From the NCBI GenBank assembly GCA_944387125.1, contig CALXDT010000105.1, positions 220 through 64,219 of the forward strand: a stretch of 64,000 nt of DNA, written 5' to 3'. The stretch's first letter is position 1. Each line of letters begins with the position of its first letter. The position numbers were made by a program, and so were the translations under genes. This DNA is from an uncultured Oscillospiraceae bacterium (GTDB lineage Bacteria > Bacillota > Clostridia > Oscillospirales > Oscillospiraceae). Below, piece by piece: positions 28,593 to 32,832 of this stretch. The notes under the pieces are model-generated. The model did not search any database and was not told the origin of the DNA. It saw only the letters and a list, made by a program, of their open reading frames with translations.

Positions 28593-29328
28593 GAATGCCC
28601 ATGTACCCCAGCTGATGGAGCTGTGGCAGCTGGCCTTTGGCGACGGGGAGGACTTTGTGCGGGGCTTTTTTCAAACCGGCTTTGATCCTCGCCGGTGCCG
28701 GTGCCTGGTGGCAGAGGGGAAGGTGCGTGCCGGGCTGTACTGGTTTCCCTGCGCCTGCCGGGGGCGGCGGCTCGCCTATCTGTATGCGGTGGCCACCCAC
28801 CCGGACTGCCGCCGCCGGGGATTGTGCCGTCTTTTGATGGAAGACGCCCGGCAGCAGCTGGGGCTTTTGGGGTATGCCGGGATTTTGCTGATGCCCGCGG
28901 GGGAGACCCAGCGGCGGATGTACGCCGCCATGGGCTACAAGACCTGCACCGGTGTCTCGGAGACGGCTTGGCAGGCCGGGAAGCCGCTGCCCTTGCGGAA
29001 GCTCCGGCCGGAGGAATATGCCGCCCTTCGCCGGGAGTATCTGCCCCAGGGCGGGGTGATTCAGGAGGGCGCTGCCCTTGCTTATCTGCACACCTTCGCG
29101 TCCTTTTATGCCGGAGAGGATTTTCTTCTGGCGGCGGCGCCCCGGGGGGAGATGCTCTGGGGCATGGAGCTGCTGGGGCGGCAGGAGGCCGCGCCGGGGA
29201 TCCTGGGGGCGCTGGGGTATGAAAAAGGGATCTTCCGCACCCCCGGCGAAAAGATCCCCTTTGCGATGTATTTGCCATTGATTCCCGGAGCCGTGCCGCC
29301 GGATTACTTCGGCCTGGCGTTGGATTAA
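28573..29328 (+). CDS. GNAT acetyltransferase (Eis-like N-terminus)
   Basis: LWQLAFGD, YLYAVATHPDCRRRGL (motif A), YAAMGY. Confidence 0.85.
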   Translation: MEIVNPENAHVPQLMELWQLAFGDGEDFVRGFFQTGFDPRRCRCLVAEGKVRAGLYWFPCACRGRRLAYLYAVATHPDCRRRGLCRLLMEDARQQLGLLGYAGILLMPAGETQRRMYAAMGYKTCTGVSETAWQAGKPLPLRKLRPEEYAALRREYLPQGGVIQEGAALAYLHTFASFYAGEDFLLAAAPRGEMLWGMELLGRQEAAPGILGALGYEKGIFRTPGEKIPFAMYLPLIPGAVPPDYFGLALD

Positions 29329-30017
29329 AGCCGCTGGAGCACCAGGGCGATCCCGCCGATCACCGCCAGATGTGCCGGATAATACCAATAGAACAGCCTG
29401 CCAATGGAGCGCCTGCCCCGACGGCCGTTGTACAGCCACAGCAGCGGCAGGGCGGCCAGGGCAAACCACTGGATGCCGCCGTAGGAAAGCGCCAGCATCA
29501 CCAGAACCAATGCCAGCAGCCCAAGCTGCTGGCTTTTTGTTTTCCCGAAATACACCGCCGCCGGCAGCAGCACCCCCCAAAGGCCGTAGTCGATGGCAAA
29601 GTCTGTGCCCCGGAGGATCCGGGGGAGGCCGAAGCATAAAAACCCGATCACCAGCAGGACGGCGGCGGTCAGAACCCGGGCGTGCCGGGGGTGTTCCGCC
29701 GCGCAGATCAGGCAGATGGACAATGTGAAGGTGACGAGAATGCTCTGATACAGCGACCCCAGCGCCAGAAAATAGACCACCTGGCAAAGCAGGGCCAGGG
29801 CGGCAATGCGCAGCAGATAGCGCCGCCGATCTCTGGTATGGCGGCAGCCTTCGGCGATCATGTAGCCGTAGATGGGCAGCGCCAGCCGCCCCAGGATCCG
29901 CAGCAACGGCACCTGGGGCAGCAGCTGCAAGCCCACATGATCCAAGGTCATGGAAACCATTGCCAGAATTTTCAATTGGTTGCCGGTCAGCCCCTGACGC
30001 TGCTGCAAAACCGCCAT
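29325..30017 (-). CDS. Second TraX-family membrane protein
   Basis: LKILA..SMTLDH, GRLALPIY..AEG, DYG..G, YNGRRG, FYWYYPAHL. Confidence 0.88.
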   Translation of the reverse strand: MAVLQQRQGLTGNQLKILAMVSMTLDHVGLQLLPQVPLLRILGRLALPIYGYMIAEGCRHTRDRRRYLLRIAALALLCQVVYFLALGSLYQSILVTFTLSICLICAAEHPRHARVLTAAVLLVIGFLCFGLPRILRGTDFAIDYGLWGVLLPAAVYFGKTKSQQLGLLALVLVMLALSYGGIQWFALAALPLLWLYNGRRGRRSIGRLFYWYYPAHLAVIGGIALVLQRL

Positions 30018-30105
30018 AGGATCCCTCCTTTTTGGGCATATCTTATCATCCGGAGCCGGAGCTTGTCAACTGCTCCCGAACAGCAAAAAATCCCCCTTTG
30101 GGGAC

Positions 30106-30159
30106 AAAAAAAGAAGTGACCCTTGACGGTAAATGCATCCTTCCGTCAAGGGTCACTTC
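30106..30159 (-). terminator. Strong orphan intrinsic terminator
   Basis: 17-bp stem GAAGTGACCCTTGACGG/CCGTCAAGGGTCACTTC plus T7 on the minus strand; no annotated gene upstream. Confidence 0.85.
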
Positions 30160-30630
30160 ATTGAATTCTTGGGCTCTATCATCAATGGTTACCTCGCTTT
30201 CTATTGGATCAGATTCCGCTTTTTTCCATTGACAAAAATTGAATCACTTCCGGGTATTGATTTTTTTGAAAAAAATGATATATAACGGAAGAGATAAAGC
30301 GGCAATCTGTTTGGCTCCTGATATTCTTTAAGGAGCCGAGGCTTACTGGATCATTGGTATCACCTCTTTGTGTCTATAGGATACCATGGGGCGCTGAAAA
30401 ATGCAAGATGCAATGTTGTATAAAATTTTAAAACGCAAATTTAGCAATTGGTAGAAAAAGGGGGAGTTTTTGGAATTTTTCTTGACAATTTCGGAGGGGA
30501 TGTGCTATTGTAAATATGTTGGGGCAAATGCGCCCCGTCCATGGAAAGCGCAAAGCCGATGGGCTTTGTCAATTGGTAACATTGACATTCCAAAGGGAAA
30601 ATTTACCAAGGAAATCGGCGTTTCCACGCC

Positions 30631-30660
30631 TTGACGGAAGTTCCCGGGAAATGGTATAAT
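30631..30660 (+). promoter_or_regulatory. SigA promoter of pur operon
   Basis: TTGACG-18-TATAAT with extended TG. Confidence 0.8.
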
Positions 30661-30678
30661 GATGCAGGACACCAGAAA

Positions 30679-30751
30679 CCCTTATGACTGACGGATCAGT
30701 GGAGCACCACATGGAGTAAGGGCATATTGTTTTTTGCCGGCCGTCTGGGCA
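30679..30751 (+). ncRNA. ZMP/ZTP (pfl) riboswitch
   Basis: CCCTTA-TGACTGACGGA, GTGG..CCAC, GGAGTAAGGG, linker, GCCGGCCGTCTGGGCA; GACGG/CCGTC pseudoknot; upstream of purE. Confidence 0.92.
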
Positions 30752-30790
30752 CACTTCCCAAGAAAGGGTAAGTGCGCCCTTTTTGTTTTT
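30747..30790 (+). terminator. Riboswitch-controlled terminator
   Basis: GGGCACACTT...AAGTGCGCCC plus T-run, overlapping aptamer P3. Confidence 0.85.
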
Positions 30791-30808
30791 CTAAAAGGAG
30801 GAACACGC

Positions 30809-31303
30809 ATGAAAAAAGTTGGTATCGTCATGGGCAGTGACAGCGATCTGCCCATCCTGCGCAAGGCCATGGACACCCTGGCCTCCTTGGACATTCCCTA
30901 CGAATGCCATATCTATTCCGCACACCGCACCCCGGAGGAGGCCCGCAGCTTCGCCGCATCTGCCCGGAAGAACGGCTTTGGCGTCATCATTGCAGCCGCC
31001 GGCATGGCTGCCCATCTGGCCGGCGCCATTGCAGCCAATACGACCCTTCCTGTCATTGGCATTCCCTGTAAATCTACCTGTCTCGACGGCATGGACGCGC
31101 TCCTGTCTACGGTGATGATGCCCTCCGGTATCCCGGTGGCCACTGTAGCCATTAACGGAGGCGTCAATGCCGCTTTGTTGTCTGCGCAGATTCTCTCTGT
31201 GGAGGATCCGGATCTGGCGAAAAGGCTGGAGGAAAAGCGTGCCGCGGACGCGGCAAAGGTGCTGCAAAAGGACGCTGCCCTGCAGACAGAGCTGACCGTC
31301 TGA
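30809..31303 (+). CDS. purE: N5-CAIR mutase
   Basis: [33 protein letters not shown]. Confidence 0.97.
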
Positions 31304-31410: not shown

Positions 31411-32832
31411 ATGGGTGGCTTTTTCGGAGTAATTTCCCACAAGAACTGTATTTACGACGTGTTTTTCGGCACGGACTATCACTCGCACCTGGGCACCCGC
31501 CGGGCGGGACTGGCCTTTTATGACCATAAGGCAGGCTTCCAGCGGCAGATCCACAGGATTGAGAACACCCCCTTCCGCACCAAATTTGAAAACGACCTGT
31601 CCAAATTCACCGGCCATTCCGGCATCGGCAGCATTTCCGACACGGATCCCCAGCCGCTGCTGGTGCGCTCCCACCTGGGAATGTTTGCCATCTCCACCGT
31701 TGGCATCATCAACAACGCCGAGTCCCTGGTGGAGAAGACCTTTTCGGGACCGGGCAAGCAGATGATGGCCATGTCTTCCGGCAGCGTCAACGCCAGCGAG
31801 CTCACCGCCGCTTTGATCAACCAGAAGGACAATCTGGTGGAGGGCATCCGCTTCGCCCAGGAGACCATCGACGGATCCTGCACCATTTTGCTGCTGATGA
31901 AGGATTGCATCATTGCCGCCCGGGACCGGCTGGGACGGCTGCCGGTGCTGGTGGGCAAAAGCCAGGATGGCTTCTGCGTCTCCTTTGAGTCCTTTGCCTA
32001 TCACAAGCTGGGCTATGAAGACCACTACGAGCTGGGTCCCGGCGAAATCGTGAAGATCACGGAAAACGAAGTGGAGCAGCTGCAGGCGCCCGGGGACAAG
32101 ATGAAAATCTGCGCCTTCCTGTGGACCTATTACGGCTACCCCAACTCCAACTATGAGGGCAAAAATGTAGAGCTGATGCGCTACCGCAACGGCGAAATCA
32201 TGGCCAGGGACGAGGAAAAGAACGGCACCATGCCCGAGGTGGATTATGTGGCCGGCGTGCCGGATTCCGGACTGCCCCATGCCATCGGCTATGCCAACTA
32301 TTCCCACAAGCCCTTTGCCCGCCCCTTTGTCAAATACACCCCCACCTGGCCCCGCTCCTTTACCCCGGCCGACCAGGAAATGCGCAACCTGGTGGCCCAG
32401 ATGAAGCAGATCCCGGTGCCGGAATTGATCCAGGACAAAAAGCTGATGTTCGTGGACGACTCCATTGTGCGGGGCACCCAGCTGCGGGAGACGGTGGAAT
32501 TCCTCTACAGCAACGGCGCCAAGGAAGTGCATATGCGCTCCGCCTGTCCGCCGATTATGTACGGATGCAAATACCTGAACTTCTCCCGGAGCAATTCGGA
32601 GATGGAGCTGCTGGCGCGCCGGACCATCCAGAATCTGGAAGGTCTGGAAGGCCAGAAGCATGTGGCGGAGTATGCCGACAGCTCCACCCACCGGGGCCAG
32701 TGCATGCTCAAGGCCATCTGTGAGGAGATGGGCTTCGACTCCCTGGGGTATCAGTCTCTGGACGGCCTGCTGGAAGCCATCGGGCTGGATCGGGACAAGG
32801 TCTGCACCTACTGCTGGAACGGGGAAGAATAA
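31411..32832 (+). CDS. purF: Amidophosphoribosyltransferase (MGGFFG variant)
   Basis: VPDSG, VDDSIVRGT PRPP loop, four Fe-S-type Cys (KICAF, SACPP, CTYCW). Confidence 0.93.
   Translation: MGGFFGVISHKNCIYDVFFGTDYHSHLGTRRAGLAFYDHKAGFQRQIHRIENTPFRTKFENDLSKFTGHSGIGSISDTDPQPLLVRSHLGMFAISTVGIINNAESLVEKTFSGPGKQMMAMSSGSVNASELTAALINQKDNLVEGIRFAQETIDGSCTILLLMKDCIIAARDRLGRLPVLVGKSQDGFCVSFESFAYHKLGYEDHYELGPGEIVKITENEVEQLQAPGDKMKICAFLWTYYGYPNSNYEGKNVELMRYRNGEIMARDEEKNGTMPEVDYVAGVPDSGLPHAIGYANYSHKPFARPFVKYTPTWPRSFTPADQEMRNLVAQMKQIPVPELIQDKKLMFVDDSIVRGTQLRETVEFLYSNGAKEVHMRSACPPIMYGCKYLNFSRSNSEMELLARRTIQNLEGLEGQKHVAEYADSSTHRGQCMLKAICEEMGFDSLGYQSLDGLLEAIGLDRDKVCTYCWNGEE

Follow-up and report, generated by a model that had tools for sequence, protein, structure and literature searches.

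A putative small-RNA gene cassette with two micro-ORFs between traX and the purine operon of an uncultured Oscillospiraceae bacterium

The minus-strand unit between traX and the purine genes

The window, i.e., the whole stretch of 64,000 nucleotides that was analyzed, contains a divergent intergenic region between traX and the purine genes. On one side, traX (29325–30017, Pfam TraX) lies on the minus strand and points leftward, and the consensus promoter scan found its promoter, TTGACA-18-TAAGAT, at 30040–30069 of the same strand, where the sequence-only reading had placed it. On the other side, the plus strand carries a promoter found by the promoter scan (TTGACG-18-TATAAT, 30631–30660), a ZMP/ZTP riboswitch (30674–30757; Rfam match of 59.5 bits), the terminator of this riboswitch (30761–30784), purE (30734–31303) and a purF-like gene (31411–32832). 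The riboswitch, purE and the purF-like gene constitute a standard purine-operon layout. The gap contains one copy of a minus-strand unit (window positions 30085–30536), which is the only copy found in the window genome (85% complete).

The 5′ half of the unit begins with a promoter, recognized by sequence reading and motif look-up, that consists of TTGCAT (30401–30406), a 17-nt spacer and TGg-TATCCT (30378–30383). It is proposed to be of the sigma-A type and to give an RNA of ~265–273 nt that would start near 30371. A conserved, partly palindromic box abuts the −35 element (30408–30423) and is a candidate operator; other copies of the unit read ATGGAATATTCCAT or TGTACAATATTACA at this place. 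The first Shine-Dalgarno sequence (SD1), GAGGTGAT, occupies 30359–30366, and its 8 nt are complementary to the 3′ end of the 16S rRNA. It is followed by ORF1 (ATG ATC CAG TAA, MIQ*, 30343–30354) and by helix P1, in which GGCTCCT (30331–30337) pairs with AGGAGCC (30313–30319). The 5′ strand of P1 begins 6 nt past the ORF1 stop codon.

The middle domain (30210–30309) was recognized by folding and covariation. It contains the long-range helix P3 (30296–30309 with 30210–30222), the pairing of CUCUUCCG (30286–30293) with CGGAAG (30247–30252) and the small hairpin P2b (30258–30262 with 30242–30246), in the loop of which CGGAAG sits. The second Shine-Dalgarno sequence (SD2), GAGGT, is at 30191–30195, and the nine-codon ORF2 (ATG..TGA, MIEPKNSMK*) at 30153–30182. 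ORF2 runs into the R hairpin, an intrinsic terminator with a perfect 17-bp stem (30143–30159 with 30113–30129), a 13-nt loop and a run of seven T residues (30106–30112). The final two sense codons of ORF2 and its stop codon are part of the hairpin, and the TGA (30153–30155) lies inside its 5′ arm. The consensus terminator scan missed the R hairpin because its loop is 13 nt long. The same scan found a back-up terminator directly past the R hairpin (GTCCCC-AAA-GGGGGA followed by six T residues, 30085–30105). The 273-nt RNA folded at −80.7 kcal/mol, with a z-score of −5.5 relative to shuffled sequences. In the 3′ modules of many other copies (e.g., L032, L066, L083, and L126), the alignment also showed a covarying 5-bp upper R stem and a conserved loop, GUGRUYAG, which resembles a tRNA D-loop and is complementary to GAUCAC in the 16S 3′ tail; the window copy has a different loop.

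Recurrence, covariation and codon-level selection

In a DNA search of 40 relatives, the SD1 stretch and the SD2/terminator stretch matched many other loci, often on the same contig, and each of the related loci retrieved and read showed the same two-module unit. An exact-pattern scan with the 5′ module, using one genome per species, returned at least 119 stretches. Approximately 100 of them are genuine copies, nearly all from Faecousia or from Oscillospiraceae MAGs; the other stretches are ordinary ribosome-binding sites that belong to real genes. The promoter, SD1 with MIQ*, the GGCTCCT/AGGAGCC hairpin, the second SD, MIEPKNSMK* and a stop codon within a strong terminator had all been claimed by the sequence-only reading. 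All were found at the positions claimed for them, and since all recur in ~100 related loci, they are not chance assemblies of motifs. Conservation of the SDs and of the peptides, which had been suggested as a check, was found for both modules, as ORF1 and ORF2 accompany them at these loci.

The 5′ module, i.e., SD1 and ORF1, is invariant over ~25 nt. Behind the invariant SD, ORF1 has two to four codons in every genuine Faecousia copy. MI* and MYR* are the commonest ORF1 peptides, and MY, MF, MIS, MIQ, MIH, MQR, MNR, MYT, and MTS also occur, so codon 2 is variable (I, Y, F, T, Q, N). An ORF2 of 8–11 codons lies 125–640 nt after ORF1 in essentially every copy for which enough sequence is available. 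A covariance model built from the 3′ module and used for genome searches found one to eight copies in 92 of 107 Faecousia genomes that were at least 90% complete. Among ~150 other high-quality Oscillospirales genomes that were sampled, it found copies in 19, which belong to 10 families, including that of the window. Four of the five order-level loci that were read keep the full cassette layout; the fifth, L150, has no recognizable 5′ module. At gathering score, Rfam 15 gave only tRNA and ZTP in the whole window and nine related loci, and at E-values up to 10 it gave only chance matches inside 30085–30536. In the Rfam search, which had also been suggested, the unit thus matches no Rfam family, and our literature search found no published description of it. 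Taken together, the unit appears to be an uncatalogued small RNA gene that is conserved across gut Clostridia of the Oscillospirales.

Some copies depart from this layout. Tandem or clustered cassettes occur within a few kb at L054:4728–5420, L016, L095 (two copies 2.7 kb apart), G166:C15, and G216:C80, and the second copy of L054 has lost its ORF1 start (ATG to ATA). In the long forms at L019, L031, L036, L049, L122, L135, and L139, a purine-rich insert adds ~180 nt, and a conserved hairpin, ACAUAAGAGC-UCCCGCUGAUGGGA, is present. These forms usually lie just upstream of a gene for a tRNA-editing domain (YbaK/ProX-like); at L019 a C_GCAxxG_C_C protein takes its place. At L086, L120, L128, and L142, the adjacent downstream genes encode MerR/TipAS proteins and have a conserved CTTGACTCT..ACGTCATAGTGTAT promoter, the long spacer of which is typical of MerR-type autoregulation. 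Finally, in one genome of another family, the cassette is directly followed by a tRNA gene (L151:338–411) that has a promoter of its own.

The conserved part also continues ~175 nt upstream of SD1, to ~30536, which had been overlooked in the sequence-only reading. Drawn in the direction of the unit, with upstream to the left, it comprises an A-run with a GC-rich hairpin, the block CAACA..ATTTATCATATCACA, TGTCAAT, ATTTCTCC..TTTTGCAC, and the palindromic box at the −35 element. In the window, the left boundary hairpin (GGGGC-loop-GCCCC) is at 30521–30536 and the block next to it (CAACA..ATTTA..ATAGCACA) at 30501–30521. The sequence of the left hairpin varies among copies and its pairing is retained. 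In most copies it is GC-rich and follows an A-run, i.e., it is a terminator for leftward transcription; that of the window copy has a short stem and no A-run.

A divergent, leftward promoter with an extended TG (TTGACA-18-TATTGT, plus strand, 30482–30511; 10 of 12 matches in the scan) points into this hairpin. At the same place, ~120 nt upstream, 91 of 94 copies have a site that matches at 9 or more of 12 positions; it is TG-extended in 88 of the 94, its −35 element is exactly TTGACA in 71, and it is near consensus across the copies (TTGACA-17/18-TGnTATGAT). For the main, rightward promoter, sites with at least 8 of 12 matches were found in 68 of the 94 copies. A T-run follows the divergent promoter at 15–65 nt in 77 of 91 copies. 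Given that this promoter is followed by a terminator, the leftward product would be only ~30–50 nt long, and given the terminators on its left and right sides, the cassette is closed by outward-facing terminators. The window copy has no T-run, and its leftward transcripts could reach the ZTP-purE leader, for which the divergent promoter could be a second purine-operon promoter. By eye, no conserved complementarity of more than 5 nt was found that would let the tiny leftward RNA pair with the main one.

Helix P1 has compensatory changes in five of its six pairs. In the structure that comprises P1, CUUCCG/CGGAAG, P2b and the R stem, 92.6% of the cells were paired, compared with 30–59% when the partners were slid, and 16 pairs were compensatory, a number reached by none of 500 shuffles; as related genomes are not independent, these and our other counts and p-values overstate the support. 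In the R stem alone, 98.6% of the cells were paired and six pairs covaried. The ORF2 stop codon occupies R stem positions 5–7 in all aligned copies, and its middle base is one of the covarying positions (G-C in 19 sequences and A-U in 18). For P3, cognate halves paired at −15.5 kcal/mol and non-cognate halves at −11.3 kcal/mol (p = 4e-7, a value inflated by the kinship of the genomes).

ORF2 occurs in 81 distinct DNA versions that encode 62 distinct peptides. Its residues 1–4 (M-I/L-E/D-P/T) vary at synonymous positions only. In the MI(E/D)P class, codons 2–4 show only third-position changes (ATT/ATA/ATC, GAA/GAG/GAC, and CCC/CCT/CCG), and in the MLD class the Leu codon alternates synonymously between TTA and CTA. 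Residues 5–8 are nearly free, and the last codon and the stop are set by the stem. The codon-position pattern supports translation of ORF2, and by their sequence both ORF1 and ORF2 look translated. The ORF2 stretch UUAGAUACC is identical over 9 nt to the 16S 790 loop, which is within chance expectation.

Selection at the amino-acid level on the first four residues, together with an ORF2 that is intact in nearly all copies, would also be expected if the RNA were the mRNA of a functional nine-residue peptide (MIEPKNSMK or MLDTKSEQK), such as a signal, a precursor or an enzyme modulator, the synthesis of which is tuned by ORF1 and the fold. Examples exist of very short peptide genes whose ORF ends at a terminator. 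In microcin C operons, mccA is a seven-codon peptide gene of this kind, and ribosome binding to its transcript is linked to termination and RNA stability. Similar to mccA, the unit has a tiny ORF with a strong SD, and the end of the ORF abuts a terminator hairpin. Different from mccA, however, nearly all of the 62 peptides end with K, E or R and not with the Asn required by MccB-type enzymes. In the Pfam tallies, no MccB-type (ThiF/E1-like) or other modifying enzyme and no exporter or other transporter is a conserved neighbor; the unit stands alone and in multiple copies. In addition, the freedom of residues 5–8 and the dictation of the last residue by the stem do not suggest a functional peptide, nor does its composition, which is hydrophilic and has neither cysteine nor an export signal. 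A peptide gene is distinctly unlikely.

The single copy in the window genome would be compatible with an absence of function, i.e., with chance motifs, a decayed protein gene or the relic of a mobile element. Against this stand conservation at the level of the order with covariation and codon-type selection, and we regard it as extremely improbable. A decayed protein gene, which the sequence-only reading had named as one of the findings that would contradict it, is rejected: the micro-ORFs are retained in relatives, the syntenic copies have no longer ORF in common, and Pfam gave no match for the local ORFs. A high-copy mobile element is likewise rejected, on the low copy number (one here and one to eight per genome), the lack of terminal repeats (by eye) and the varying sequence of the left hairpin. 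Moreover, the pattern of the 3′ module had no match in 2.9 million viral contigs, and a phage-borne unit is rejected on this ground.

Gene context and independence from traX

For the context of the unit, real genes were called by a codon-usage log-likelihood trained on the window and cross-checked with the Pfam tallies. The next downstream gene is co-oriented with the unit in 41 of 72 loci and convergent in 31 (43%), and the upstream gene is co-directional in 47 loci and divergent in 43. The split is also near even when counted by the ~39 locus types. Convergent neighbors include clear genes, such as those for MetRS, PTS EIIC, and Spo0A, that end 8–100 nt from the terminator. The co-oriented downstream genes have their own promoters. 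Among the six syntenic copies, the traX promoter is TTGACA-17/18-TAAGAT in five, including the window, and TTGACA-TACAAT in the sixth. A second GC hairpin with a T-run lies at most 110 nt past the R hairpin in 37 of 76 copies. In two of the 40 relatives searched at the DNA level, the purE-traX gap is conserved. In genomes that share only the ZTP-purE side, another neighbor replaces traX.

Several of these features recall ribosome-mediated attenuators. The vmlR leader of Bacillus subtilis senses stalled ribosomes through a uORF of three codons (Met-Ile-Asn) that has an SD of its own (PMC9226507). Similar to the vmlR, lmo0919, erm and msr leaders, the unit places a 3-codon ORF with a strong SD close to its 5′ end, and hairpins and an intrinsic terminator come after it (PMC9226507). 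Its ORF1 peptides (MI, MIQ, MIS, and MYR) are of the same size as the vmlR uORF and often start with Met-Ile. An inhibitor of translation or a shortage of tRNA could stall the ORF1 or ORF2 ribosomes, the terminator would fail and read-through would raise traX expression. In the window and in no fewer than five syntenic genomes, a co-oriented traX follows the unit, and co-oriented neighbors at other loci include SpoU methylases, MerR/TipAS regulators, MatE pumps and tRNA-editing domains. The window copy also has a candidate antiterminator, a 7/8 match to the 3′ arm of the terminator (TTGTCAATGG, 30226–30235).

What the unit shares with attenuators is a short uORF, located in the 5′ part and preceded by an SD of its own, and a covarying intrinsic terminator downstream; what it lacks is a conserved antiterminator pairing and an uninterrupted leader position before a co-oriented gene. 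A copy of the terminator 3′ arm is present in only 4 of 61 unit copies, i.e., the candidate of the window is missing from 57. No conserved antiterminator was found when the upstream segment was paired with the 5′ arm of the terminator (−6.45 kcal/mol, compared with −6.58 kcal/mol for shuffled sequences); a switch, if present, could therefore only be the ribosome. In addition, different from attenuators, the unit has a second ORF of nine codons that ends inside the terminator, and it is not tied to a downstream gene: convergent genes lie right past the terminator in the 31 loci, co-oriented genes have their own promoters, and back-up terminators intervene. In the window, both the back-up terminator (30085–30105) and the conserved promoter of traX (30040–30069) lie in between. 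An obligate cis leader of traX is ruled out by the orientation counts, the own promoters and the back-up terminators, and attenuation of traX by stalled ribosomes is unlikely. Read-through into traX from the window copy may occur, but it would have to pass the two terminators in between. Given the near-even orientation, the own promoters and the lack of a conserved antiterminator, the unit is an autonomous gene rather than an obligate leader.

Similar to SR1/SR1P, RNAIII/hld, and SgrS/SgrT, the unit is a stand-alone stretch of a few hundred nucleotides from promoter to terminator, which is structured and predicted to be translated. As in such dual-function small RNAs, there are an independent promoter, a double terminator and no longer conserved ORF; a small ORF that appears to be translated is also present. 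Different from them, the ORFs of the unit have only 2–4 and 8–11 codons, compared with 26–43 or more; the unit is without a known base-pairing seed or target, and the end of its ORF is built into the terminator.

The sequence-only reading had offered a small RNA, a dual-function RNA or a sense/antisense pair. A self-contained minus-strand unit with two micro-ORFs, and with it a small RNA or a dual-function RNA, is supported by the conservation of the unit as a block, its occurrence in either orientation, its insulation by terminators and the codon pattern of ORF2. The sense/antisense pair is not supported. The letters of the plus-strand TTGATT/TATATA promoter postulated at about 30257–30284 are present, but the site fails an ordinary promoter criterion and sits in a non-conserved loop. 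Across the copies, promoter-like sites in antisense orientation were found in 8 of 62, with 8.9 expected from shuffled sequences, and are thus not above chance. A type I toxin-antitoxin system, in which a hydrophobic toxin of ~20 or more residues is accompanied by a complementary antisense RNA, is also rejected, as the peptides have 2–11 hydrophilic residues and antisense promoters do not exceed chance. So is a sponge of the CsrB/RsmZ type: no CsrA (PF02599) was found in the window genome, as far as this is complete (85%), and the RNA has only one GGA-containing loop. Thus, the unit is not placed as an attenuator would be, and it is without the partners of mccA, type I toxins and CsrA sponges.

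Predicted engagement of ribosomes

We consider it somewhat better than an even chance that 30085–30536 holds, in full, one copy of an insulated small-RNA gene cassette that is conserved in the Oscillospirales, is not a leader of traX and works by engaging ribosomes. The starting points are the observed conserved anatomy, the covariation, the codon-type selection on ORF2, the independence of orientation and the insulation of the unit. From the sequence we infer transcription, ribosome occupancy and each functional step as follows. Ribosomes would load at once on the very strong SD1, which lies ~5–10 nt from the predicted start of the RNA, and translate the 3-codon ORF. After two to three codons, the ORF1 ribosome would terminate while still covering the 5′ strand of P1, and it would thereby shield the 5′ end of the RNA and open helix P1. 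After the structured middle domain, SD2 would drive the nine-codon ORF2. The ORF2 ribosome would meet the base of the R stem when ~4 residues, i.e., the conserved ones, have been made. To reach the stop codon, it would have to melt the stem of the terminator, which could not form in the meantime; blocking of the terminator by ribosomes would explain the frequent back-up terminator. Translation would thus determine the stability of the RNA and its 3′ end, which would form at either the first hairpin or the back-up terminator. The conserved M-I/L-E/D-P/T residues with which ORF2 begins would sense the state of translation in cis, from inside the ribosome. In the model that we favor, the 3′ end and the stability of the RNA would record the ribosome traffic on the two micro-ORFs, and the output could be in trans. 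The tiny divergent transcript is left unexplained by this model.

In a wider form, the proposal is possible but doubtful: an order-wide class of insulated, strongly promoted, stand-alone "ribosome-engaging" RNAs, neither protein-coding nor target-pairing, the only invariant content of which would be two ribosome-binding sites with mini-ORFs. Such RNAs would report or modulate the state of the translation machinery, by capture of ribosomes or tRNAs or by sensing of a block in initiation or early elongation. In the gut of humans and animals, the Oscillospirales rank with the most abundant and the least cultured bacteria, and their RNA regulators are almost undescribed. The parts of the unit are those of antibiotic-sensing leaders, i.e., a 3-codon uORF and a leader peptide that ends in a terminator, but the unit is a stand-alone one. 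Should it sense or control the state of translation, it would be a new regulatory layer in the Oscillospirales and a natural case of minigenes and nascent tetrapeptides as sensors. At minimum, the unit is a new, well-defined RNA family that has clear boundaries, shows covariation and could now be entered into Rfam.

An RNA that engages ribosomes could also act on the whole translation apparatus. Strongly promoted and under the control of a repressor, it would, if induced, use its SD1 and mini-ORFs to trap ribosomes, or to tie up particular tRNAs as short peptidyl-tRNAs in the manner of the bar minigenes of phage lambda, and slow growth. Both SD1 and the GUGRUYAG motif of the R loop are complementary to the 16S 3′ tail, and two near-consensus promoters with a palindromic box suggest high and regulated expression. 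Similar to lambda bar, mg2 of axe-txe and the minigene in the LEE1 leader of EHEC, the unit has an SD, an AUG, one or two sense codons and a stop, and its two-codon forms (such as AUG-AUC-stop) with a strong SD match the layout of the bar type (PMC8708949, PMC3262186). Translation of such minigenes affects the expression of neighboring genes or the tRNA pools (PMC8708949, PMC3262186). The bar, mg2 and LEE1 minigenes, however, sit in operon leaders or phage regions, whereas the minigene of the unit is the invariant 5′ end of an independent structured RNA. With only one to eight copies per genome and two ribosome sites in each, stoichiometric trapping would need extreme expression; the variation of ORF1 codon 2 means that no single tRNA is targeted, and there is no evidence of toxicity. 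This alternative is very unlikely.

For the favored model, in which ribosomes would shield the RNA and set its 3′ end, SD1 can be compared with stabilizing SDs, which lie near the 5′ ends of Firmicute RNAs and protect these from RNase J1 (PMC12067863). In the yrzI mRNA, ribosomes on an exceptionally strong SD block RNase J1 (PMC12067863). Different from such elements, the unit invariably has a start codon and an immediate stop codon behind its SD, and its RNA encodes no protein that would gain from stabilization. Similar to the STAB-SD of the cry3A and yrzI/spyTA mRNAs, SD1 is exceptionally strong, lies near the 5′ end and would be able to hold a ribosome and block a 5′-exonuclease (PMC12067863).
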